Source: Chloroflexota bacterium
Lineage (GTDB): Bacteria; Chloroflexota; Anaerolineae; Aggregatilineales; UBA2796
Reading direction: 5' to 3'
NCBI GenBank assembly: GCA_021325095.1
Contig: JAJPHV010000108.1
Span: forward strand, 1-12,492
Length of the DNA stretch: 12,492 nucleotides
A program made the translations under genes and the position numbers. How positions within the stretch are numbered: position 1 is the stretch's first letter; the number at the start of each line of letters is the position of its first letter. Under the pieces are notes generated by a model, which made no database searches, had not been told where the DNA came from, and saw only the letters and a list, made by a program, of their open reading frames with translations. Of the stretch, positions 443 to 12,492 are shown one piece after another.

Positions 443-667
443 CTACAGGACCGCCGTATAACCGGCTTCCCAGATCGCTTTGACAATTTGTTCCGGCGTT
501 ACTGTGCCTGGTTTGACTTCAACACGGGTTTCCCCGTTGCGCCAGTTGTCGATAGTTACCGTTTTTACCCCGTCCAGGGACAGCACTGCCTCCTGGACGT
601 GGTACGCGCAGGTAGGGCAGGTCATCCCCTTGACTTTGAGTACGAGTGGCTGTTGTGAGTTTTCCAT
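443..667 (-). CDS. heavy-metal-associated (HMA) domain metallochaperone, CopZ/MerP-like, without a signal peptide
   Basis: GMTCPTCAYHV matches the GMTCxxC metal-binding loop of the HMA ferredoxin-like fold. The protein is 74 aa if started at MENSQQ, which is preceded by AGAGAGGA at about 10 nt. The longer ORF reaches 754 but the extension has no ribosome binding site. It lies downstream of MerR-type promoter copy P2. Confidence 0.8.
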   Translation of the reverse strand: MENSQQPLVLKVKGMTCPTCAYHVQEAVLSLDGVKTVTIDNWRNGETRVEVKPGTVTPEQIVKAIWEAGYTAVL

Positions 668-793
668 AATGAATTCCATCCTCTCTGGCTCGTAAAGCCT
701 TGTCGTTTGTTTGCGGGTGCTGCATCGCGCGCCTGTCACCGCACCGAATTGCATTGCCAGTGGGCGGCTTCAAGCACGGATATGCCCCGGAGA

Positions 794-948: not shown

Positions 949-2289
949 TTACACCATGTAACTTATATCGGAGGATTCGGCTGGATGGACGAAGATCGTC
1001 TGTTTAATATCCGTCGCTGTGAGATGGTGGCGGATAGCAAGCGCGAACAGATTGATAACTTCGCCCGCATGGGAACCCAGCAGGTGCGCGCCAAGAATGC
1101 GTCCGGTGTCCGCGTCCACCAGCACTTTGAACGCCGTGTGTTTTTCATTAGTCCGGCGCGACGAATACCAGCCCTCTGTTTTCTGGAAGTTGACAGTAAA
1201 CTTAAGATCCTTTTCGCGCGCCTCCTCTTCATTCAGCCCCGTTCTTGCCAGCGCAGGAACGGTAAATACCACACTGGGCGTGCCGGTGTAGTCCGGCGTG
1301 CGTTGGTTGCCTCTAAGCAAATTGCTGGAAACAACATGTCCATCGGCAACGGCCACCGGGGTCAGGGGCATTCCCTTCGTAGCAGCCGCATCCCCAGCGG
1401 CATACACGGCAGGATTGGACACACTTTGAAGATAGTCGTTCACGACAACCCCGCGCGTCGTGTACTCAATGCCGCCTTGCTCAAGGTTGAGGCCCTCAAT
1501 GTCAGGGACACGTCCCGCGCCGTGTACGACGAGGTCCGATGGAAAACTACCTCCGTCGGACGTATGCACCCGCAGTTGGTCATTCTCTTTTTCAATGACG
1601 ACGACCTCCGATTGTAACCGCACGTCAATACCGATACTCCTGGTTGCAGCGACCAACTCTGTCACCAGATCCGCGTCGAAGGCTTCCAGCGGGCGTTTGC
1701 CGCGATGCAGAATCGTCACCTGCGCGCCGGCGCGAGCGGCAATATGGGCAAACTCGAATGAAATATACCCTCCGCCGATGAATACGATGCGCTCTGGCAG
1801 CGTTTCCAGTTCAAGAAAATCGGTACTGGTCGCTACGTATTCCGCGCCGGGAATACCCAGGTCACGGGGCTTCGCGCCCGTCGCAATGGCAATACGTTTC
1901 GCAGTCAGCGTTTCGCCATCGAGCTGGAGGCTGTTCGGGCCAACAAACTGTGCCTCGCCGTGATAGGTTGCGATACCGGAGCCACGGAACGATTTCTCGA
2001 TGTTCGCGGGTGTCGGGTCGGTAAAGGTGCGCTTGAAACGGATCAGGTCTGCCCAGTCAATCCGCATCTCGCCTGCAATCCCATGTCCAGTCATGCGGCG
2101 CTGCCAATCCATCAATTCGGCTGCGCCCACTAGCACTTTCTTCGGGTCGCAGCCGCGCAGAGCGCAAGTGCCGCCATACGGACGCGAATCGACCACAGCC
2201 ACTTCCCAACCACTCGAGCGCACTCGCCGCGCGATGTTTTGCCCGGCCATGCCAACGCCGATCACGACAAGATCAAATTCGTTACTCAT
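949..2289 (-). CDS. class I FAD-dependent pyridine nucleotide-disulfide oxidoreductase (glutathione-reductase/MerA-core family). It lacks the NmerA domain and the C-terminal Cys pair.
   Basis: 446 aa. The N-terminus has the FAD Rossmann motif DLVVIGVGMAGQ. The redox-active disulfide reads GGTCALRGCDPKK (CxxxxC). There is a second GxGxxG (FIGGGYISFE). The C-terminal HPAESSD resembles the His-Glu dyad of the dimerisation domain. It starts 46 nt after the MerT-like gene stop. Confidence 0.85.
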   Translation of the reverse strand: MSNEFDLVVIGVGMAGQNIARRVRSSGWEVAVVDSRPYGGTCALRGCDPKKVLVGAAELMDWQRRMTGHGIAGEMRIDWADLIRFKRTFTDPTPANIEKSFRGSGIATYHGEAQFVGPNSLQLDGETLTAKRIAIATGAKPRDLGIPGAEYVATSTDFLELETLPERIVFIGGGYISFEFAHIAARAGAQVTILHRGKRPLEAFDADLVTELVAATRSIGIDVRLQSEVVVIEKENDQLRVHTSDGGSFPSDLVVHGAGRVPDIEGLNLEQGGIEYTTRGVVVNDYLQSVSNPAVYAAGDAAATKGMPLTPVAVADGHVVSSNLLRGNQRTPDYTGTPSVVFTVPALARTGLNEEEAREKDLKFTVNFQKTEGWYSSRRTNEKHTAFKVLVDADTGRILGAHLLGSHAGEVINLFALAIRHHLTATDIKQTIFVHPAESSDISYMV

Positions 2290-2335: not shown

Positions 2336-2686
2336 CTATTGCCGGGCGCGATGTGTCACTGACTGACCGAGCGGTTCACAACATTCGCACGACTTTTCCA
2401 GGGGCAAGTGCTCGGCTTTCGGTCGGGGTTCGGTTGGCGTCAGCGACTGACGTTTAGGCTTGCTATCCTGGCTCAACCACACTGACCCCAGCCCAATGCC
2501 TCCAAAGAAAAGGACAGTGGATAAGGCGAACACCAGACCGGTGTTCGCACTCAACCAGGCACCGAACGCCGTACCCGCCGTCAGAGCCAACACAATCGGC
2601 AGGGTGATCGCCAAATGACAGGGGCAGGCTATAATGCCAACGCCCGTGCTGACGTAACCTCGAATAGATCGGATTTTCGTGCTCAT
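2336..2686 (-). CDS. putative mercuric ion transport membrane protein (MerT/MerF-like; intramembrane CPC plus cytoplasmic CECC)
   Basis: 116 aa from MSTKIRS, which is preceded by GAGGAGG at 7 nt. The upstream Met of the longer ORF lacks a ribosome binding site. It has 2-3 predicted TM helices with ACPCH inside the first. The basic C-terminal tail ends in SCECCEP. It lies immediately downstream of merA. Cys pairs in a TM helix and a cytoplasmic tail are the hallmark of MerT/MerF/MerC importers, although this arrangement is non-canonical. Confidence 0.5.
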   Translation of the reverse strand: MSTKIRSIRGYVSTGVGIIACPCHLAITLPIVLALTAGTAFGAWLSANTGLVFALSTVLFFGGIGLGSVWLSQDSKPKRQSLTPTEPRPKAEHLPLEKSCECCEPLGQSVTHRARQ

Positions 2687-2728: not shown

Positions 2729-4420
2729 TCAACCTGCGCAGCACGACAGCATCGCCACATCTTTCTCAAAGGTCTGCGCGGCCAGCTTCAGCCCTTCGAC
2801 CATCGTCAGATACGGGAAGAAGGTATCGATCAAGTCCTGTAACGTCATGCCCGCTTTGATGGCAACCACCGCCGGTTGGACAACCTCCCCTGCATCGGGG
2901 GCCAGCACATGAGCGCCGAGCAGGTGATCCGTCGTCGCGTCAGCGACCAGTTTGATCAAACCGCGTGTGTCGCGGTTAGCCAGGGCGCGCGGAACGTATG
3001 CCAGCGGTAAAACAGAGGTCTTGACCTCATAGCCCGCCTGGCGCGCCTGCTGTTCGGTCAGCCCCACTGCGGCCACTGCCGGATCGGTGAACGTGACTCG
3101 CGGCAGCACGCTCGTATCATAAACACGGCCTGACCCGTTGAGCGCGTTGTCCGCAGCCAGCGTGCCGCTATAGGCGGCCACATACACGAACATATCGCGC
3201 CCGGTCACGTCGCCTGCGGCATAGACGTAGGGATTGGTCGTGCGTAGCTGTTCATCCACAATGATTTCGCCCCGTTTGCCGAGTTTGACCCCGGCTTCTT
3301 CGAGGGCCAGGCCGCGCGTGTTGGGTCGCCGACCCGTCGCCATCAGCAGGGCTTTTGCCTCGAAGACCAGCGTTTCACCAGCGCGTTCAGCCGTGAGGCG
3401 GTAACCGCGTTCATTCCGGTCTACCCGTGAGATGGTCACGCCAGCCTCAACGATCAGCCCTTCTTCGCGCAGGTAGCCGGTCAGCGCTTCGCTGATCTCT
3501 GGCTCTTCAAAGGGGGTGATCACCGGCATCACTTCCAACACCGTGACCTTCGTGCCGAAGCGCGCGTAAGCCTGAGCCAGTTCCAGCCCGACGGCGTTCG
3601 CGCCGACCACAATCATCGAAGCCGGACGCTCGGTCAGGTCCAGCGCCGAGGTGCTGTCCAGATAGCCAGCTTCCTCCAGACCGGGAATGGGGGGAGTCCA
3701 TGGCTTGGCACCGGTAGCGATGATGATCTTGCCAGGCGTGTACACGGTGGGTGTCGCGTTGTTCCCGACGGGCGCAATCTCAACCCGGTTGTCGCCCAGC
3801 AGTTTAGCCCGGCCCTGGAGGTAGGTAATGTCCGGGTAGGCAGCCAGCACATCAATGTATTTGGCCTGGCGAAGCGTCGTGACCAGTTCATCCTTCTGGG
3901 TGATCACAGCCCCCCAATCTCCGGCGGCGCTCAGGCGCACCGCTCCCTGGAATGGGTGATGCCCCGCCAGGTGATGCAGCTCGGCGGCACGGATGATCGT
4001 TTTAGACGGCACACAACCGACATTGACGCAGGTGCCGCCGATGGTGCTGGCTTCGACGAGGGCGACACGCTTACCCAGTTCAGCCCCCTTGATCGCTGCC
4101 GCGAAGCCTGCCGACCCCCCACCGATGACCATCAAATCGTAATCTTGAGAAGCGCTGTCACCATCCTGGCTGGTGGGCTGTAGCTCACGGCGCGCTTTCA
4201 CCGTCGCGCGATAACCCGCCTCTTTGACTGCCGTGACGAGCGCCTCGCTGGGCACGTCGCTGCTGGCCTTCAAGGTCGCTTGTGCTGACTGCCAGCTGGG
4301 TACGTCCACCTCGCTGACGCCAGGAACGCTCTTCAACGCTTTGGTGACGTGAACCGCGCAGCTATCGCAGGTCATCCCGCGCACGTCGAGCGTAATGTGT
4401 TGTACTGTCTCCGTTGTCAT
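2729..4420 (-). CDS. merA: mercuric reductase MerA with an N-terminal HMA (NmerA) domain
   Basis: 563 aa. The N-terminus has GMTCDSCAVHV (HMA). FAD binding is DLMVIGGGSAGFAAA. The redox-active site is GGTCVNVGCVPSK. The C-terminus ends LSCCAG, the vicinal Cys pair diagnostic of MerA. GAGAGGGAAACCA precedes the ATG as a ribosome binding site. Confidence 0.95.
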   Translation of the reverse strand: MTTETVQHITLDVRGMTCDSCAVHVTKALKSVPGVSEVDVPSWQSAQATLKASSDVPSEALVTAVKEAGYRATVKARRELQPTSQDGDSASQDYDLMVIGGGSAGFAAAIKGAELGKRVALVEASTIGGTCVNVGCVPSKTIIRAAELHHLAGHHPFQGAVRLSAAGDWGAVITQKDELVTTLRQAKYIDVLAAYPDITYLQGRAKLLGDNRVEIAPVGNNATPTVYTPGKIIIATGAKPWTPPIPGLEEAGYLDSTSALDLTERPASMIVVGANAVGLELAQAYARFGTKVTVLEVMPVITPFEEPEISEALTGYLREEGLIVEAGVTISRVDRNERGYRLTAERAGETLVFEAKALLMATGRRPNTRGLALEEAGVKLGKRGEIIVDEQLRTTNPYVYAAGDVTGRDMFVYVAAYSGTLAADNALNGSGRVYDTSVLPRVTFTDPAVAAVGLTEQQARQAGYEVKTSVLPLAYVPRALANRDTRGLIKLVADATTDHLLGAHVLAPDAGEVVQPAVVAIKAGMTLQDLIDTFFPYLTMVEGLKLAAQTFEKDVAMLSCCAG

Positions 4421-4529
4421 TGGTTTCCCTCTCTACCTATCCGCAAAATTAGACTGATGCCTTGAGCCAGTGGTCATACCGGCTGTGTCAACCATGTTGA
4501 TAAATGGCTATGCAACACGCTACCTTTCT

Positions 4530-5189
4530 TTACCCGGCATTTTGCATTGCCTGCTGAGGCGTATCCGGCGAAACTGGTGGGTGTACTAGCCTGTACGTCG
4601 CTACGGGGATCGCTTTGCCCTTAAGCGACAGATCGCCGATAAACTGGTACTCATCCGGCTCCAGCAGCTTCTGGATGTCGGCGGTGCAGAGGGCTTGTTT
4701 TCCCTCGGCTAATGCGGCCAGGCGGCTGGCCGTATTGACCGTGTCGCCGATGATGGTCAAGTCCTGTGTGCGCCCAGTCCCTAGCCGGGATAACATGGCC
4801 GTACCTCGCGCCAGTCCGATGCCGAGGGTTGGACAGACTGTCGATGGATAGCACGATTTTATGCGCTCGAACCCCTCAATCAGCGTCAGCGCCGTGTGGT
4901 AGGCGTGTTTCACTTCGCGGCGCGGTTCGGTGGTGTCGCTGAAGGCAGCCAGGATGCCATCGCCCAGGAACTTGAAAATCTCTCCAGCCTGTTGCTGAAT
5001 AATGTCGCTGGCAAGCTGGTAAAACCGATCCAGCAACGTCACAACCTCACGCACCGGCAGTTGCTCGGTCAGGGAGGTGAAGCCCCGCACATCGGCAAAC
5101 ATCACCGTCAGAGGCTGTTCGCGCACGCAGCAATCCACAACAATAGCAGGGTGGTCGCTGCTTAACGGGCGCAGTGCTGACGCGCTCAT
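4530..5189 (-). CDS. stand-alone class III nucleotidyl cyclase (adenylate/guanylate cyclase catalytic domain)
   Basis: 219 aa. VMFADVRGFT carries the first metal Asp and KFLGDGILAAF the second. GDTVNTASRL carries the transition-state Asn and Arg. The C-terminal LKGKAIPVATYRL is the typical end of a cyclase homology domain. A 28-aa N-terminal extension contains VVDCCV. Its start overlaps the stop of the upstream CBM48-like gene as ATGA. Confidence 0.85.
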   Translation of the reverse strand: MSASALRPLSSDHPAIVVDCCVREQPLTVMFADVRGFTSLTEQLPVREVVTLLDRFYQLASDIIQQQAGEIFKFLGDGILAAFSDTTEPRREVKHAYHTALTLIEGFERIKSCYPSTVCPTLGIGLARGTAMLSRLGTGRTQDLTIIGDTVNTASRLAALAEGKQALCTADIQKLLEPDEYQFIGDLSLKGKAIPVATYRLVHPPVSPDTPQQAMQNAG

Positions 5190-5476
5190 GTGTTGACGAC
5201 CGAGTTCTCTGAACCGAACGGGTTAGGGACGTAAGCGTCCGCGTGCCAATCGTTATGCCATTCGGTCTCATTGACCAGGTAGCGGAATTGATGGGCGCAC
5301 TGTGTTGGCAGTGTAAAGGTTGCTGTAAATTTTCCTTCCTTCGTCTGCTTCATCACCTGGGGCTGCCAGTCCGTAAACTCGCCACAAATCCAGGCGTGTT
5401 GTGCCTGCAATTCGCCGGGCAGGACGAAGGGGACCTGACAGCTTTGCCCATCTGAAGCATAGGCTTTCTCGATCAT
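5186..5476 (-). CDS. small CBM48 / AMPK-beta glycogen-binding-domain-like (E-set) protein
   Basis: 96 aa. VPFVLPGELQAQHAWICGEFTDWQ...KFTATFTLPTQCAHQFRYLVNETEWHNDWHA resembles the AMPK-beta GBD / isoamylase N-terminal CBM48 pattern: V-P-x-x-F-x-W, G-x-F-x-x-W, a KF/YKF beta strand and W-x-x-D. A ribosome binding site GGGAAAGGA sits 8 nt before the ATG. It is translationally coupled to the cyclase. Confidence 0.55.
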   Translation of the reverse strand: MIEKAYASDGQSCQVPFVLPGELQAQHAWICGEFTDWQPQVMKQTKEGKFTATFTLPTQCAHQFRYLVNETEWHNDWHADAYVPNPFGSENSVVNT

Positions 5477-5609
5477 CGGCCTGATCCTTTCCCTAACTTG
5501 CAGCAGTGCGTGGCTGTAAATCGGCCATAATGTCTCACTGTGGCTCCTTCAAAGGTGCCCCCCTTGCTGTACTGCTATGTGCAGCGTTTGAGCGACTGCC
5601 ATGCCACTC

Positions 5610-6002
5610 TTACTCAGATGACCAATGCCAACCTGCATTTGTGGGTCTTCGCGCCAGACCCTGCGCGGCATTACACATAGCCTTGAGTTCGTCACGGACT
5701 TGCTCAAGGTCACGAATACGATCCTGAATTTCCCCGATCCGGCGGCCCATCAGGTTCATGACGTAGCGGCAAGGAGGCTCACCGCGTTCTCGAAAAGCTA
5801 CAATTTCGGCAATCTCATCCAGCCCCAGGTCCAGCACATGCACCCGTCGGATGAAGCGCAGCCGTTCCACGTCCGCATCCTCGTATCCCCGGTAGCCATT
5901 TGGGGCACGTTTGGCAGGCGGCAGCAAGCCGATTTCCTCGTAGAAACGGATGGTCTTGCACGGCACGCCTGTCCGGTGACTCAACTCGCTGATTTGAAAC
6001 AT
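5610..6002 (-). CDS. merR: MerR-family metal-responsive transcriptional regulator
   Basis: 130 aa from MFQISELS, preceded by GGAGGTGA at 5 nt. The HTH is ISELSHRTGVPCKTIRFYEEIGLL, followed by a coiled-coil dimerisation helix. Cys sits at the start of the dimerisation helix (EPPCRYV) and at AMCNAAQG. It lies directly downstream of the P1 dyad promoter. Confidence 0.8.
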   Translation of the reverse strand: MFQISELSHRTGVPCKTIRFYEEIGLLPPAKRAPNGYRGYEDADVERLRFIRRVHVLDLGLDEIAEIVAFRERGEPPCRYVMNLMGRRIGEIQDRIRDLEQVRDELKAMCNAAQGLARRPTNAGWHWSSE

Positions 6003-6034
6003 CGCTGTCACCTCCACATCTCGCATTCTTTCAG

Positions 6035-6068
6035 CCATGCTACGACTTCCTGTCGCTGGAATGTCAAG
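6035..6068 (-). promoter_or_regulatory. MerR-type promoter/operator copy P1: -35 TTGACA (6062-6067), 19-bp spacer, -10 TAGCAT (6037-6042), dyad TTCCt-N5-TGGAA
   Basis: Read on the minus strand: CTTGACATTCCAGCGACAGGAAGTCGTAGCATGG. The implied transcription start is about 28 nt upstream of the merR ATG at 6002. The 19-bp spacer is suboptimal for sigma70 and typical of MerR-activated promoters. Confidence 0.6.
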
Positions 6069-6137
6069 AGGGTCTTTTAGCGGTAGTGAAGAAACGCTTC
6101 GATTCAGACCAGACTGAAAGAAGCGGCCTTTGTATAC

Positions 6138-6356
6138 TCAATCCTCCTGGTGAAGTGTCTCACGGTCGGCTTTGGGTACTTGTTCACCGATCCAGTCTGC
6201 CACGGGCGACTGCAAGCTGCCGCCGCAAGCTGGACAGCGTGGCTCAGTATCGGCACAGTATGCGCCACAGGCCACACACTGCAACTCACCTTCGTACATG
6301 GCCCGTACCAGTTCGATGATCGCCTGATAATCGCCCCCCATACGACAACACATCAT
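6138..6356 (-). CDS. small Cys-rich zinc-ribbon protein
   Basis: 72 aa from MMCCRMGG, preceded by AAAAGGAAGGGA as a ribosome binding site. It contains C-x2-C-x3-C-x6-C-x2-C (CVACGAYCADTEPRCPACGG) plus an N-terminal MMCC. That is 8 Cys in 72 aa. Confidence 0.45.
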   Translation of the reverse strand: MMCCRMGGDYQAIIELVRAMYEGELQCVACGAYCADTEPRCPACGGSLQSPVADWIGEQVPKADRETLHQED

Positions 6357-6539
6357 TCCCTTCCTTTTCGACCCATTGGCTTTCGCCTGTCGCACGTCGA
6401 TTCTTGCTTTCCAGTTTCTTTGTCCAGTAGCTTTGATGTGGCTTTCAGTCTCATCCTCATGGGCGATCCGTTATCGATAGACAAAGACAACCTTTTGCCA
6501 CACAGGATTTTGGGGATCGCCTTCATTGTCATAAGTTGG

Positions 6540-7030: not shown

Positions 7031-7348
7031 ATGACGAATACAACGCCTGACCTTGGTGAGCAGACAACCACCTACCTCGATCCTGAACTGGTCGGAAATC
7101 TGCAAGATCGCCTTAGCCGAATCGCTGGTCACGTTAGCGCGGTTTCGCGGATGCTGGGTGAGCAAAAAGACTGTGATCAAATCCTGATCCAGATGGCCGC
7201 CATTAAAGCGGCCATGAATCAGGTGATCATCAAGACTCTGGAAGGACATATTTCGATCTGTATTCAGACACAAACGGCTGAAGGACAGAACAGTGAAGCA
7301 CTGGAAAGCTTAATGAAAGCCTTGAATGTTGTGCTAAAAAATTCCTAA
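7031..7348 (+). CDS. csoR: CsoR/RcnR-family (DUF156) metal-sensing transcriptional repressor
   Basis: 105 aa. LQDRLSRIAGHVSAVSRML...KDCDQILIQMAAIKAAMNQVIIKTLEGHISIC matches the CsoR helical bundle. The Cu(I)-ligand positions Cys (KDC), His and Cys (EGHISIC, H-x3-C) are all present. A consensus promoter and ribosome binding site lie upstream. Confidence 0.9.
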   Translation: MTNTTPDLGEQTTTYLDPELVGNLQDRLSRIAGHVSAVSRMLGEQKDCDQILIQMAAIKAAMNQVIIKTLEGHISICIQTQTAEGQNSEALESLMKALNVVLKNS

Positions 7349-7508: not shown

Positions 7509-7781
7509 TCATGCTTTCACTACGGTCGGTGAAGAACGCAAAGTCTTTGCTGAGGCGCCGAGCCAGGCCAACGAGCACTCCACCAGCCAGCGCCAGGGGA
7601 TGACTTCAAAGCCCTGGAGGTCATCGCTGCGCAGGGTAATATCGACAATGATCGTCTTGAACTTCTGGGCGAGCCAGTCGACAAACTCGCCGCGATAGCC
7701 GCCATCGGCCCACAGCCGCTTCAGAGGCTTGAACACGACTTTGGGCAAGGCCTTGAGCAGTTCAATGCTGAGATCACTTGC
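7509..7781 (-). mobile_element. 3' fragment of an IS5-family (IS427/IS903-like DDE) transposase gene, truncated at the 5' side; pseudogene remnant
   Basis: LWADGGYRGEFVDWLAQ...LRSDDLQGFEVIPWRWLVECSLAWLG matches the C-terminal DDE region of IS5-family transposases (xADxGY, RW(V/I)VE, AWL). The frame is closed by a TAG at 7782-7784 on the minus strand. Sequence further upstream is not transposase-like in any frame. Confidence 0.6.
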
Positions 7782-7942: not shown

Positions 7943-8377
7943 ATGTATATGCCGCTGGTGACACGATGGGCCATTCGGGCCGCTATGGTTTACCTGTTGC
8001 TAGGGCTGCTGACCGGAACCCTCTACTGGGCGAATCTACAATGGGCATTGTGGCCGCCGCTGGCCGCGTTAAGCCCAACCTATCTGCATTTGCTGGTGAT
8101 CGGCTGGCTGACCCAGCTTGTTTTCGGCGTCATCTACTGGATGTTCCCGATCATCAACAAAGCCAACATGCGCGGCGACCCCCGGCTGGCATGGAGCGTG
8201 TTGCTCCTGCTCAATGCGGGCATGATCCTGCGCCTGATCTGCGAACCCTGGCGCGCCAGCGCTCCCAATGACCTGAACGGCCTGGGGCTGGTCGTGTCGG
8301 CCATATTGCTCACGCTGGCTGGCTACCTGTTCGTGGTCGTTTGCTGGCCGCGTGTGCGTGAGAGAGCAGGAAGCTGA
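7943..8377 (+). CDS. 4-TM integral membrane protein, paralog A (conserved H-x2-LLV-x-GWL-x-QL-x2-GV-x-YW-x2-P motif)
   Basis: 144 aa. Four hydrophobic helices. The ATG at 7943 or 7949 is preceded by GGAAAGGA. A paralog follows 3 nt later. Confidence 0.6.
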   Translation: MYMPLVTRWAIRAAMVYLLLGLLTGTLYWANLQWALWPPLAALSPTYLHLLVIGWLTQLVFGVIYWMFPIINKANMRGDPRLAWSVLLLLNAGMILRLICEPWRASAPNDLNGLGLVVSAILLTLAGYLFVVVCWPRVRERAGS

Positions 8378-8380
8378 CCA

Positions 8381-8836
8381 ATGCCCCTCTTGAGTCGCTG
8401 TTTCATCCGCTCTGCGCTGGTTTGCCTGGCAATTGGTTTCACGTTGGGCGGGCTGATGCTCTCGGCGAAGGGTGGCGCTGTCGATGCGCGGGTCTGGGCC
8501 TGGCTGCCCATGCACATCGCTTTGCTGGTCAATGGCTGGCTCGTTCAGCTTTCACTGGGCGTCATGTACTGGATCTTGCCGCGTATTCATCTGGGGGATC
8601 GCGGGCGGCCCGCCTGGGCGTGGAGCGGGTTCGTCTGCCTGCAAGTTGGCCTGCTGCTGGCGCTCGTTTCCGGGGCCAGCCTGTGGATTGCAGAGGCAGC
8701 CAACCTGTTTGCACCGGCGATGGTGTTACAGGCGGCAGGCATCGTCCTGTTTGCCGTCCATGCCTGGCCGCGCATCCGCCCCGCGATTGTGCGCGCCGCG
8801 CAGGGCGCAGGTGACAGAACAGTTTCAAACTCCTGA
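8381..8836 (+). CDS. 4-TM integral membrane protein, paralog B, translationally coupled to paralog A
   Basis: 151 aa. It shares HIALLVNGWLVQLSLGVMYWILP and AWAWS with paralog A (HLLVIGWLTQLVFGVIYWMFP and LAWS). AGGAAG lies at the end of gene A. Confidence 0.6.
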   Translation: MPLLSRCFIRSALVCLAIGFTLGGLMLSAKGGAVDARVWAWLPMHIALLVNGWLVQLSLGVMYWILPRIHLGDRGRPAWAWSGFVCLQVGLLLALVSGASLWIAEAANLFAPAMVLQAAGIVLFAVHAWPRIRPAIVRAAQGAGDRTVSNS

Positions 8837-8919: not shown

Positions 8920-10962
8920 CTAACTCTGTTTGTCGCCGCTCTCGGCCACGTCCATCGCACCGACCACATTCTGACCATTGCCAGACTTGTTGGCGATCTG
9001 GTCAAGGATGCTCTGGCGGATGCGTTCGACCTCGGTACTGGGCCTGCTCTGAGCGCCCGCCTTCCCGTCAACGGTCAACTTCTCGGACAGCAGCATCGCC
9101 ATCAGCGCCTCGAACGCGCTGTAGCTGCCGCCATTGCCACTGCCGTTGCCGCCGGTGATCACCATCTTCGGCACGATGTCGATACCGGATTTCTCGACGG
9201 CAGCGCTGAAGCGATCCAACGCCTGTTGGAGCACCTGGAACTGCGGCCCGCCGTAAGCGCGTACCTGTTCCTCGACGGCCAGGGCGCGGGCAATCCCGAT
9301 ACGGGCTTCGCGCTCGGCGTCCGCTTCGGCCAGCGCTTTGATCTTGGCCGCTTCTTGCAGCGAGCGCTGGTAGGAAGCCTTACCTTCGTTGCTCTGGATA
9401 GTGATGCTGATCTGCGATTCGGTCAGCGATTGCTGCTGCCGGGCGATGGCTTCGGCCTCGCGGAGTTCACGCTCTTTGGCAGCGGCAGCTTCCTTGCGGC
9501 TGTACGTTTCGATCTGTTCGACGGCGATCTGGCGATCCCGGAGCTGGGCCAGGATTTGCTCGATCTTCTGATCCGAGGCCGAGGACGCGGGCGTGCCAAT
9601 CAGCACTTCTTCCAGTTCCAGGTTGTAATGTGCAAAGCGATCCTTCATCTCCCGCGATGATTGATCTTGAATCTGGCTGCGTTCCTGGATCAACTGGATA
9701 AGGGTGCGCGTCTGCCCGATGTTCTTGAAGTACGCCGCCACCATCGGGTCAAGGGTCTGGTCAACCAGGCGCTTGATGTCGCCAAAGCGCTGGATGACCA
9801 GCGGCGCTTTGCGGTAGTCGATGTGAATGACCACCGAAAGCGGCAGAAGCGGCTCAAAAGCATCCTTCGTGATCAGTTCCACTGCCGACAGGTTTTCGTC
9901 GAAGCGATGCGCGCCGACCTCGTCCTTGTTCCACTTCAAGATGATGTTGGTAGTCGGCACCAGAATGACTTTCCCCGCATAGGTGTTGAAGGCATACTTG
10001 CCGGGCATCAGCGGCGTACTCCAAACACCCTTGAAGCCTTTCTCCACCATTTCGCCGTGCTTGTAATCTTCGCCGGAGATGTCGCCGCCTCGTCCGCCTG
10101 TGTACGACACAATGACCCCGACGAAACCGACGTCGATCACTGTCTTGGGAATCATCTCGACGGTGCCGAACAGCCGATTGATGAAATACGTGCCCTCGAC
10201 GAGCACCTGCAACTGGCGACCACGCCGGCCACCCGCTGCCAGGAACTTCTCCGGGTCCTGGAAATTGTTGTGATACGTACTGGGGTCCTTCGGGTCGTCG
10301 CCTACTGTCGGGGCGATGATGTCATCCTGGGAAAGGGATGGGCCGTCGTGTACGGTTACGATTCCGACCAGATCGTCTGCACCTTTGATGACGACAGGCC
10401 GGAAGCCCTCGCGCTCCTGGATCAGGGCGGCCATCCGTTTGAAAGTGGCTTCTTCCTCACGACTGATCGGCAGGTAGTAGTTGCCTGCTTCGGTCAACAC
10501 CACGAACTGCGCCAGGTTGATGGCATATGTACCTTCACGCAGGATTTCACGCTGCGGGCCGCGCTGCCCACCGTGTTTCAGAAAGCCTTCCACGTCCTGG
10601 AAGGTCTTGCCTTCGGGGATGACCGCACCGAGGGTCTGTGTCGGGCGCATCGGCATACCGTCGCGCGCGAAGACGTACCCGATCTGGCCCTGCGGAATCG
10701 TGACCAATGGCGCAAGATGAACACGATACTGGAAGGGCATCAGAAAATGGACGCCACCGCGCAGAACATTCGGTTGAAAACCGGCCTCTTTGTTGAGCGC
10801 AATGAACCCGTCCTTGACGGAACCCTTGCCCGAAAAGACCTTTTCCACGATGCCGATACGATTGTTGGGGACGATGCGGATGACCCTGGTCAACAGAAAG
10901 TACAGCACGACGATTATGGCGACCAGCAGGAGAACTGTAACGGCAAGCTGTAGCTGCGGCAT
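8920..10962 (-). CDS. flotillin-family SPFH (band 7) membrane scaffold protein
   Basis: 680 aa. It has an N-terminal TM hairpin, an SPFH-like core (RIVPNNRIGIVEKVFSGKG) and a long Glu/Ala-rich coiled coil (EAAAAKERELREAEAIARQQ, ALAEADAEREARIG) typical of the flotillin domain. GAGGAG sits 7 nt before the ATG. Confidence 0.9.
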   Translation of the reverse strand: MPQLQLAVTVLLLVAIIVVLYFLLTRVIRIVPNNRIGIVEKVFSGKGSVKDGFIALNKEAGFQPNVLRGGVHFLMPFQYRVHLAPLVTIPQGQIGYVFARDGMPMRPTQTLGAVIPEGKTFQDVEGFLKHGGQRGPQREILREGTYAINLAQFVVLTEAGNYYLPISREEEATFKRMAALIQEREGFRPVVIKGADDLVGIVTVHDGPSLSQDDIIAPTVGDDPKDPSTYHNNFQDPEKFLAAGGRRGRQLQVLVEGTYFINRLFGTVEMIPKTVIDVGFVGVIVSYTGGRGGDISGEDYKHGEMVEKGFKGVWSTPLMPGKYAFNTYAGKVILVPTTNIILKWNKDEVGAHRFDENLSAVELITKDAFEPLLPLSVVIHIDYRKAPLVIQRFGDIKRLVDQTLDPMVAAYFKNIGQTRTLIQLIQERSQIQDQSSREMKDRFAHYNLELEEVLIGTPASSASDQKIEQILAQLRDRQIAVEQIETYSRKEAAAAKERELREAEAIARQQQSLTESQISITIQSNEGKASYQRSLQEAAKIKALAEADAEREARIGIARALAVEEQVRAYGGPQFQVLQQALDRFSAAVEKSGIDIVPKMVITGGNGSGNGGSYSAFEALMAMLLSEKLTVDGKAGAQSRPSTEVERIRQSILDQIANKSGNGQNVVGAMDVAESGDKQS

Positions 10963-11189: not shown

Positions 11190-11265
11190 GAACCCGTAGC
11201 TCAATCGGTAGAGCAGCGGACTTTTAATCCGTTGGTTGAGAGTTCGAGTCTCTCCGGGTTCACCA
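11190..11265 (+). tRNA. tRNA-Lys (anticodon UUU), with genome-encoded CCA
   Basis: Manual cloverleaf: acceptor GAACCCG/CGGGTTC; D-arm GCTC-AATCGGTA-GAGC; anticodon stem GCGGA/TCCGT with loop CTTTTAA; 5-nt variable loop; T-arm GAGAG-TTCGAGT-CTCTC; discriminator A then CCA. Confidence 0.93.
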
Positions 11266-11267
11266 CC

Positions 11268-11309
11268 CACAAACCGCATGGAGATGCGGTTTGTGCTTTT
11301 CTTGCGTTT
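11268..11309 (+). terminator. rho-independent terminator after the tRNA: 12-bp stem CACAAACCGCAT / ATGCGGTTTGTG, GGAG loop, then CTTTTCTTGCGTTT
   Basis: A perfect 12-bp stem followed by a T-rich tract immediately 3' of the tRNA. Confidence 0.7.
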
Positions 11310-11599
11310 AGGCCAACGGACATGCAGTCTTTTGTTCCTGTGCCGATCTCCCGGAAGATCAACGCTGAGTGAGCGGCGGCTCTCGCAGGCCAGCATATGC
11401 CTGCGGAACCCCTTCGAGTGGGACTGACCGCTGGAACCAGTCGCCATCTTCGGGATAGATCAGGCTGAGTACCCCCACCTCGATCTCCTCCTCGCCGTCG
11501 TCGCTGGCGATGATCCCGACAAGCTGGCCGGGGTAAGCCCGTGCCAGGCCTATCAAGACGGCGACGATCTCCTCCGGGTTGATGGTGATGATCTTGACG

Positions 11600-12335
11600 C
11601 TCCTCCTCCTCACTCGAAAATACGTCTGTGAGCGGGCTGAATCGCTCGTGGCGCTCAGACAACTCCCGCCCGCCGAACACCGCGTAGAATGACGCAGTGG
11701 TGTTCACATTACTGTGGCCCATGAGCTGTGACACTTCGGGCAGGCTGGCTCCCTTGCGCAGCATCTCGCGGGCAAAGCCGTGCCGGAAGCTGTGAGGGTT
11801 GGCACGGCCCGTCACCCCGGCCTTGCGCTTCAGGCGCTTCAGGATGTGCTTCAGGCCGTTGACGGTCAGGGGCCGCGCGTAGCTTCGGGGAAGCAGTGAG
11901 CAAAAGACCGTTGTGGCCTGTGGTGGGCGGACGGCCAGCCAGTCCGCTAGGGAGGCCTCGGTGCGGGCCGTGAAGGGCACGCTGCGCAGCCGGTCGCCCT
12001 TCTCCGTGACGACGGCCCGCCGGTGGGCAAAGTCGATGGCGTCCAGGGTCAGCGAAACCAGCCCCCGGCTCGGCAGCCGGTATCGACAAAGACAGCCAGC
12101 ATGGCCCGGTTTCGCTTGCCGAGAGGAGTGTCATCCGTCGCGGCGAACAGTTTGCGGAGATCGTCCAGATCGACGGCCTTTGGCTGTGGCTGGGAGCGGC
12201 GCGGCAGACGGATGCACTGCATGGGGTTCGTGGCCGAGGCGAGGTTGTGCTCGGCCCAAGCCCAGTTGAAGAAGCGTTTCAGGGCGCGGATGCGACCCCG
12301 GATGGTCTCAACGGCCAGTCCGCCTGACGTTTCGG
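11600..12335 (-). pseudogene. tyrosine recombinase / phage-type integrase, degraded: frameshift near 12060, no in-frame stop after the catalytic Tyr, N-terminus replaced
   Basis: The segment 12335-12049 encodes LAVETIRGRIRALKRFFNWA...GKRNRAMLAVFVDTGCRAGG, with the core-binding domain and box I Arg. The next frame continues as LVSLTLDAIDF...ANPHSFRHGFAREMLRKGASL...LMGHSNVNTTASFYAVF, giving the HxxR, His and Tyr catalytic residues. The frame switch lies in a C5 run at 12063-12067. The frame then stays open through the tRNA gene to 11201. The 3' end of the annotated span is only estimated. Confidence 0.7.
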
Positions 12336-12492
12336 GTCGATGATGGCGGCACTGGGCTGCGCGTCTCGGCCCAGCGGAATACGTAACTTTTCGCGCAGGA
12401 CGGTATTGATGCGCTCCCCAATCCCCGCTCGTCGCCACTGCCGATAATAGTCATGCACCGTCTTGTACGGTGGAAAATCATGCGGCAACAAA
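12336..12492 (-). mobile_element. 5' fragment of an IS5-family (IS427-group) transposase gene, partial at the window edge and joined directly to the integrase remnant
   Basis: LPHDFPPYKTVHDYYRQWRRAGIGERINTVLREKL...AQPSAAIID matches the conserved OrfA region of IS427-group transposases, where the usual form is LPxDFPPWxTVYxxFRRWrxdGtWe ... PSAgiIDSQSVKT. Similarity ends after IID, exactly where integrase-like coding begins in another frame. Confidence 0.55.

Follow-up and report, generated by a model that had tools for sequence, protein, structure and literature searches.

Results

A cyclase gene in a mercury-resistance cluster

The stretch of DNA analysed here (contig JAJPHV010000108.1 of a Chloroflexota bacterium, 12,492 nt; hereafter the window) carries a mercury-resistance (mer) cluster that includes a gene for a nucleotidyl cyclase of 219 aa. 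The gene occupies positions 4530..5189 of the minus strand, the strand of all features of the window given below unless a plus sign is added, and was recognized from the open reading frame (ORF) list, a PF00211 match, sequence matches in the PDB, an AlphaFold2 (AF2) model and Foldseek. The order of genes on the minus strand is: a 72-aa protein with an N-terminal MMCC, merR, a CBM48-like gene, the cyclase, merA, a MerE-like gene, a glutathione-reductase-like (GR-like) oxidoreductase and an HMA-domain protein. The cyclase gene is co-oriented with the mer genes and separated from merA by 109 nt. As detailed below, its orthologs share an invariant pair of adjacent cysteines (CC) just ahead of the catalytic core and a residence in mer clusters, and the data suggest that mercury exposure may be wired to cyclic AMP (cAMP) signalling in these bacteria.

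The predicted protein is made up of one catalytic domain, preceded by a short extension at its N-terminus. Its match to PF00211 (63.5 bits, cut-off 21.9, residues 25-200) places it among the class III nucleotidyl cyclases. The AF2 model, made for a single chain, has a predicted local distance difference test score (pLDDT) of 85.9 and a predicted template modelling score of 0.81. Foldseek aligned this model to many cyclase structures with probability 1.00; the best matches were CyaB (3r5g), CyaC (1wc1), OaPAC and bPAC, with E-values down to 1.8e-17 and template modelling scores of 0.8-0.9 (maximum 0.89, target-normalised). By sequence, the closest relatives in the PDB are bPAC and OaPAC (E 7e-21 to 1e-19), followed by Pseudomonas aeruginosa CyaB and S. 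platensis CyaC.

Residue conservation was scored in 125 aligned sequences, comprising 17 of the cyclase family and 108 non-orthologous nearest homologues used as outgroup. All six canonical catalytic residues (D33, D77, K73, T145, N152 and R156) lie within one chain. The first metal-binding Asp, D33 (5091..5093, in MFADVRGFT), is present in 125/125 sequences; the second, D77, is invariant as well, and so is N152. D77 closes the segment K73-F-L-G-D77 (4959..4973), whose substrate-specifying residue K73 (codon at 4971-4973, within FKFLGDG) is Lys in 15 of the 17 family members, Arg in the other two and Lys in 96/108 outgroup sequences. The second specificity position, in D143-L-T145 (4755..4763; T145 codon at 4755-4757, within LTIIGDTVN), is Thr throughout the family (17/17) and in 105 of the 108 nearest homologues. 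N152 and R156 form the transition-state-stabilising pair (4722..4736), R156 being found in 17/17 family members and 106/108 outgroup sequences (123/125 in all). A HMMER alignment to bPAC, gapless around both motifs and corrected for a tag that shifts the PDB numbering by +3, equates K73 with K197, R156 with R278, and D143-L-T145 with D265-H-T267 (D143 with D265, T145 with T267). A class III cyclase with a complete catalytic set per chain is expected to pair head to tail as a homodimer and so to have two active sites.

The Lys...Thr pair of class IIIb adenylyl cyclases

Class III guanylyl cyclases have Glu at the first specificity position and Cys or Gly at the second; the window enzyme has K73 and T145 instead. 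Among the features that characterise class IIIb adenylyl cyclases is a Thr in place of the substrate-binding Asp (PMC2613629). In bPAC, a proven adenylyl cyclase, K197 and T267 are the substrate-accommodating, base-recognition residues (PMC8522238), and conversion of this enzyme into a guanylyl cyclase requires the triple change K197E/D265K/T267G (PMC4569695). By this comparison the Lys...Thr pair is canonical for class IIIb adenylyl cyclases, a class to which the window enzyme very probably belongs. Since both the K73/T145 pair and the closest relatives match this class, there are strong grounds to expect cAMP as the product.

An earlier sequence-only reading of the gene, which gave no strand, had located the VVDCCV motif (residues 17-22), the Lys of FKFLGDG and the Thr of LTIIGDTVN correctly, and its choice of Thr, not Asp, at the second specificity position is upheld by the alignment with bPAC, a characterised adenylyl cyclase. 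It went astray in describing the pair as non-canonical: this is the class IIIb signature, common to bPAC and nearly all of the nearest homologues. The same reading had gone on to propose a pyrimidine cyclic nucleotide (cCMP or cUMP) as a possible product, as for the PycC enzymes of Pycsar systems. The window enzyme does share the class III fold with PycC, and PADLOC hidden Markov models (HMMs) for PycC match it with up to 68.5 bits. In addition, the PDB search gave a weak match (E 1.4e-7) to 7r65, a structure deposited under the name adenylate/guanylate cyclase, and some PycC enzymes keep Lys or Arg at the position equivalent to Lys73 (PMC11224242), Arg being the residue found in two members of the present family. 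Yet generic adenylyl cyclases score 72-118 bits on the same PycC HMMs, with a Leptospira enzyme at 117.7. Ordinary class III cyclases thus do at least as well as the window enzyme, and its PycC matches are non-specific; they restate the homology of fold and were rejected as support for a Pycsar assignment. The sequence matches to class IIIb adenylyl cyclases have E-values lower than that of 7r65 by about 14 orders of magnitude. Specificity residues also differ: the CTP-specific EaPycC has R142 and Q144 at -4 and -2 from its metal-binding Asp D146, whereas K73 and L75 are found here (PMC11224242). Finally, Pycsar systems have a two-gene architecture with an effector activated by a cyclic nucleoside monophosphate (cNMP), whereas the neighbours of the cyclase are the CBM-like gene and mer genes. 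No TIR, transmembrane or cNMP-binding effector gene is adjacent, PADLOC returned no matches for the cyclase neighbours tested, and no Pycsar effector Pfam domain was present in any mer locus examined. The proposed pyrimidine product thus finds no support in the residue pair, the fold matches or the gene context.

An invariant Cys-Cys pair ahead of the catalytic core

C20 and C21 are encoded by two TGC codons (5127..5132; C20 at 5130-5132, C21 at 5127-5129). The ordered core is preceded by some 20-24 aa, as judged from the start of the Pfam match at residue 25 and of strand beta1 at residue 23 in the AF2 model; the N-terminal extension noted in the sequence-only reading is therefore real, but the 28 aa assigned to it were too many. 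The pLDDT stays below 50 for residues 1-19 of this model, and the two cysteines sit about two residues before beta1.

In a lone sequence with five Cys among 219 aa, a CC dipeptide has a chance probability of ~0.09. The significance of the pair thus stems from its conservation across orthologs, not from its rarity in a single sequence. A search of 5.8 billion proteins yielded 12 ortholog clusters (46-100% identity), and all 12 carry CC at the same place, within the motif [DN]-C-C-[VL]-[RH]-[EQ]-x-P-L-T. The one apparent exception, P0003, results from a miscalled start codon; its DNA encodes ...AVVDCCVREQPLTVMFAD. The CC codons vary synonymously among lineages (TGC TGC, TGC TGT and TGT TGT), and between M1 and P26 no residue other than C20 and C21 is invariant, the N-terminus being otherwise variable. 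In two lineages the protein has no further cysteine, for which adjacency has a chance probability of ~0.009; this is so in the P0006/P0008 lineage.

This arrangement appears confined to the clade. A CC pair at most 30 residues upstream of the metal-binding Asp was found in none of the 108 nearest homologues and in none of 209 related class III cyclases. The clade itself is isolated: in a profile search the 12 clusters scored at least 320 bits, and the next match 143 bits. A scan of genome contigs with the family alignment gave no ortholog among the matches listed, the best of which reached 38% identity, to generic cyclases.

Vicinal cysteines at the C-terminus of MerA, in MerT and in MerF serve as Hg(II) ligands in the hand-off of mercury. 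The cyclase resembles these proteins in having adjacent cysteines and in being encoded among genes of their pathway, and CC occurs in two further proteins of its own island, MerA (ending ...SCCAG) and the 72-aa MMCC protein. It differs from them in its unrelated protein context, with no motif similarity beyond CC. As to location, in sensor-coupled class III cyclases an upstream helix or handle delivers the signal just before beta1, and in many relatives of the window enzyme a conserved turn, LGG[ED]x[RK], occupies nearly the same register as CC. As far as sequence goes, the link between CC and Hg(II) made in the sequence-only reading is supported, the pair being invariant in its clade, restricted to it and found, where flanks are readable, only in mer clusters. 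A lack of conservation among orthologs, which that reading had named as evidence against itself, was not observed. We tentatively propose that CC serves in sensing or handling thiols or Hg(II) and thereby alters cyclase activity; Hg(II) binding by the pair, with an effect on activity, is plausible, and exchange with MerA or the HMA protein, also raised in that reading, might occur as well.

Conserved residence in mer clusters

All orthologs with readable flanks reside in mer clusters, in which the position of the cyclase gene varies among four sub-clades. Orthologs P0001, P0002 and P0003 are found in the order merR2-CBM-cyc-merA-merE (cyc, cyclase gene) and P0004 in the order merR2-CysRich132-cyc-merA-merE. 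The order is merB-merR1-merA-x-merR2-cyc-GRlike-redoxin-HMA for P0006 and P0008, and merR1-merA-merF-GRlike-72aa-143aa-CBM-cyc-merB for P0011; the short contig of P0010 shows just the module 142-aa-CBM-cyc. Survival of the linkage through such rearrangements argues for a functional tie between cyclase and mer genes, and we regard the cyclase, with high confidence, as a conserved accessory gene of mer clusters in uncultured Chloroflexota. The host was typed for one ortholog contig (448 kb, carrying an 86%-identical ortholog) by means of the housekeeping gene PGI. The protein shares 91% identity with its counterpart in an 'Anaerolineae bacterium' and 81-84% with those of Aggregatilineales, Phototrophicaceae and Chloroflexota metagenome-assembled genomes; at least that host is therefore an uncultured member of the Chloroflexota, resembling Anaerolineae.

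Downstream of the cyclase gene, the window encodes a mercuric reductase, MerA, with an NmerA (HMA) domain (2729..4420; TIGR02053, 562.5 bits against a cut-off of 454, and Pfam), a MerE-like membrane protein with a CPC motif (2336..2686; PF05052, 29.6 bits, and gene call), the GR-like pyridine nucleotide-disulfide oxidoreductase of 446 aa (949..2289; Pfam and NCBIfam), and an HMA-domain metallochaperone in a 78-aa form (443..679; PF00403, 45.9 bits, and gene call). The GR-like oxidoreductase is conserved in these mer islands, and in the P0006/P0008 lineage its gene overlaps the stop codon of the cyclase. More generally, the mer islands are rich in thiol-disulfide proteins: Redoxin/AhpC-TSA, DsbD-like and GR-like proteins.

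On the upstream side, a gene for a stand-alone beta-sandwich protein of 96 aa resembling CBM48 and AMPK-beta (5186..5476; PF16561, 30.7 bits) has its stop codon overlapping the cyclase start (ATGA). The ATGA overlap recurs in loci L005, L096, L013 and L098, suggesting that the two genes may be translationally coupled. The protein shares several conserved Trp and Asn residues with the CBM of AMPK beta2 (FTDW/FNNW, EW/QW and a C-terminal Asn), and is thus a module of glycan-binding type within a mer cluster. A role as a dedicated, obligatory cyclase subunit was considered and rejected, the family being very broad (1590 representatives) and the gene absent from the P0006/P0008 lineage. Further upstream are a MerR-family regulator in a 130-aa form, which heads the module (5610..6002; Pfam MerR_1, MerR and MerR-DNA-bind), and, beyond merR, the 72-aa MMCC protein (6138..6356; ORF and gene calls), which ends in a zinc-ribbon-like CxxC...CPxCGG motif. 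This small protein has no Pfam match; homologues are encoded at L013 4702-4920 and L011 11622-11831, and it is represented in three sub-clades.

Other genes of these islands are recorded here in their own right. In two sub-clades the cyclase or CBM gene is immediately preceded by a gene for a Cys-rich protein of 132-143 aa (CCPxCxxH ... CPxCDxP ... CxxCGH) without a Pfam match (L009 7562-7960, L013 4955-5386, L098 43-471); it is not present in the window. Related mer islands, the window not among them, also contain a 457-aa pyridine nucleotide-disulfide oxidoreductase with an in-frame TGA at the first Cys of GGT[C]xNxGCxPTK (L005 13746-15119, L009 11493-12866, L096 9189 onward, L097 5460 onward). 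Gene callers split it into pieces of 40 aa and 399 aa, and conserved hairpins are found at +11 and +28 after the TGA, suggesting a selenocysteine enzyme.

In the window, the flanks of the mer cluster encode a CsoR-type metal-sensitive repressor, two small membrane proteins without family and a 680-aa Band_7/YqiK-like protein (7031..7348 plus, 7943..8836 plus and 8920..10962 minus). A tRNA-Lys(UUU) gene lies at 11190..11265 (plus), overlapped or flanked by tyrosine-recombinase-like ORF fragments (11201..12438), and a transposase-like fragment is found further in (7509..7748). Because the tRNA-Lys adjoins fragmented recombinase-like ORFs, and given the transposase-like fragment, the mer cluster seems to belong to a mobile island that has integrated.

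Promoters and MerR subtypes

A scan of positions 4300-6400 for the sigma-70 consensus revealed no promoter, and terminator-like sites in this interval were at chance level and inside coding sequences. Likewise, the merR-CBM spacer had no Rfam match (the only one found was to the tRNA) and a folding z-score of -0.29. MerR-type promoters were found only when the search was relaxed to allow spacers of 18-20 bp. One such predicted promoter (6037..6067), 66 nt before the merR ATG, consists of TTGACA, a 19-bp spacer with an imperfect dyad, and TAGCAT. The arrangement TTGAC[AC]-19 bp (dyad)-TAnnnT precedes every merR examined in five loci; MerR promoters, whose spacers of 19-20 bp contain a dyad operator, have this architecture. 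A second element, TTGACA directly followed by a dyad, is located in the cyclase-merA spacer (4465..4491) and is conserved in the corresponding spacers of L005 and L096, where the dyad matches perfectly over 7 bp (AGCCAGT-n6-ACTGGCT). This element is a candidate operator or promoter of merA, regulated apart from that of merR; no convincing -10 element was seen after its TTGACA.

The MerR proteins of the islands fall into two subtypes. A short form ('type 2'), encoded directly upstream of the cyclase module, is without the C-terminal CVCH motif and keeps C78 as its sole invariant Cys (window 5610..6002, L005 9187-9579, L009 7161-7502, L011 7582-7950, L095 4440-4808). MerR copies that head merA or lie near merB keep both C78 and CVCH (L011 4991-5401, L095 1850-2260, L013 599-1015, L005 20098-20544). 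The sole MerR of the window is of the short type and falls below every NCBIfam equivalog cut-off. Since the adjacent MerR lacks the CVCH motif, Hg-inducibility of the promoter at 6037..6067 is not assured. Still, as the cyclase gene would be transcribed with or next to merR/merA from MerR-type promoters, the cyclase is probably made upon mer induction, and we would place moderate confidence in its being expressed when the mer system is switched on by mercury.

Discussion

Altogether, these data describe an enzyme of known class; what is new is its invariant CC hinge motif and its exclusive, conserved residence in mer clusters. A literature search on adenylate cyclases linked to mer, on the CC hinge motif and on mer residence found nothing relevant, most subscription journals being outside the search, so that novelty is unproven. 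In its fold (Foldseek E 1e-17 to 1e-14), its six catalytic residues, its Lys...Thr base-recognition pair and its complete catalytic set per chain, as in homodimeric cyclases, the enzyme resembles CyaB (3R5G), S. platensis CyaC (1WC0/1WC1), bPAC and OaPAC. Unlike these, to which it is only ~24-28% identical, it is without BLUF, GAF, HAMP or any other sensor domain, has a disordered extension of ~20 aa that ends in CC, and is encoded inside mer clusters. A precedent for an enzyme of nucleotide second-messenger metabolism in a mercury-resistance operon is urf2 (mrp) of Tn501/Tn21, a metal-induced accessory gene that encodes an EAL phosphodiesterase for cyclic di-GMP (c-di-GMP) (PMC6629876). The urf2 product, which is proteobacterial, has another fold, degrades c-di-GMP where the cyclase would synthesise cAMP, and carries no pair of adjacent Cys at a regulatory hinge. 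If CC senses or handles Hg(II), the cAMP signal of the cyclase would nonetheless be a parallel to this phosphodiesterase.

The interpretation that we favour, if by a limited degree, is that of a minimal, mer-linked class IIIb cAMP cyclase in which CC acts as an Hg(II) or thiol-stress site that couples mercury to cAMP. The enzyme, probably homodimeric, would convert ATP to cAMP and would be transcribed with or beside merR and merA from MerR-type promoters. Its CC thiolates might report thiol stress or bind Hg(II), be it inside a single chain or between the two protomers, and would thereby alter how the catalytic dimer is arranged or how active it is. In this way the cyclase would turn mer induction and mercury load into a cAMP signal, to be read by a receptor encoded elsewhere.

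Several observations weigh against this interpretation. In three of the four sub-clades, the MerR directly upstream of the cyclase is without the C-terminal Cys motif. No gene for a cAMP receptor, a phosphodiesterase or a cNMP-binding protein was present in any island examined. C20 lies at the low-confidence edge of the AF2 model, which, being that of a monomer, gives no spacing between the two CC pairs of a dimer. Two family members have Arg in place of K73. Lastly, the orthologs represent about four independent sub-clades, possibly of one phylum, and conservation may partly reflect shared ancestry or co-transfer of the islands.

A less probable explanation is that mer control over the cyclase is purely transcriptional and CC a vicinal-disulfide redox element, a structural feature of the hinge or a protective site that MerA or cellular thiols clear of Hg, thereby keeping the cyclase active under mercury stress. 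The MerR-type promoters upstream, the operon membership kept while neighbouring genes vary, and the abundance of thiol-disulfide proteins in the islands all fit with this scenario, and the structural data give no sign that the two CC pairs are near each other. Strict invariance of CC within a variable, disordered N-terminus, and its restriction to the mer-linked clade (0/209 relatives), favour on the contrary a function tied to mercury or thiols over a purely structural one; between a protective and a sensing role, sequence makes no distinction. About as probable as this rival is the stronger proposal of a cyclase gated directly by Hg(II), in which the two CC pairs of the dimer would clamp the ion at the hinge before beta1 and switch cAMP synthesis, the cyclase being possibly the real Hg sensor where the adjacent MerR lost its Cys motif.

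We also considered that CC could be the remnant of an N-terminal Cys4 zinc-ribbon module of related class IIIb cyclases, binding Zn or nothing. In 55 of the 209 related cyclases, CxxC...CxxC directly precedes beta1, and MAFFT aligned C21 of the family to the last Cys of the module (TCFEKAP with CCVREQP). Cyclases such as P0025, P0032 and P0040 have in common with the window enzyme a Cys metal-type motif immediately before beta1 and a K/T-type domain. They differ in having four Cys in two CxxC knuckles within an extension of ~70 aa. By profile score, zinc-ribbon cyclases are not the closest outgroup, the top place being taken by membrane-anchored forms without ribbon. Moreover, the first CxxC knuckle is wholly missing from the family, two Cys per chain cannot alone form a Cys4 site, and an alignment of single Cys residues may be fortuitous. 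A zinc-ribbon remnant is accordingly improbable. As a separate observation, P0025, P0032, P0040 and about 50 other homologues (260-270 aa; module PRC[RK]LCxAP[FY]GGxGG ... GPSRKNPxxCxxCFExAPxGG) appear to represent an uncharacterised zinc-ribbon-cyclase architecture. Least of all, on the evidence given above, would we expect the enzyme to make cCMP or cUMP in the manner of PycC.

Returning to the favoured reading, that of a cAMP cyclase with CC as a site of mercury or thiol-stress input, its implications depend on what CC does. If the pair is not a sensor, the analysis still corrects the Lys...Thr pair to a textbook class IIIb signature, which leaves no ground for pyrimidine cyclic nucleotides. 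Many class IIIb adenylyl cyclases respond to CO2 or bicarbonate. If the reading is true, a soft metal acting through a two-cysteine hinge would be a new input for class III cyclases. Were the enzyme directly gated by Hg(II), class III cyclases would gain their first metal-thiolate-gated member and the mer system its first direct link to cAMP signalling, and a metal-gated cyclase of 219 aa would be attractive as a biosensor or chemogenetic part. For the bacteria themselves, if CC senses or handles Hg(II), the mer clusters of Chloroflexota would both detoxify mercury and emit a cAMP signal.

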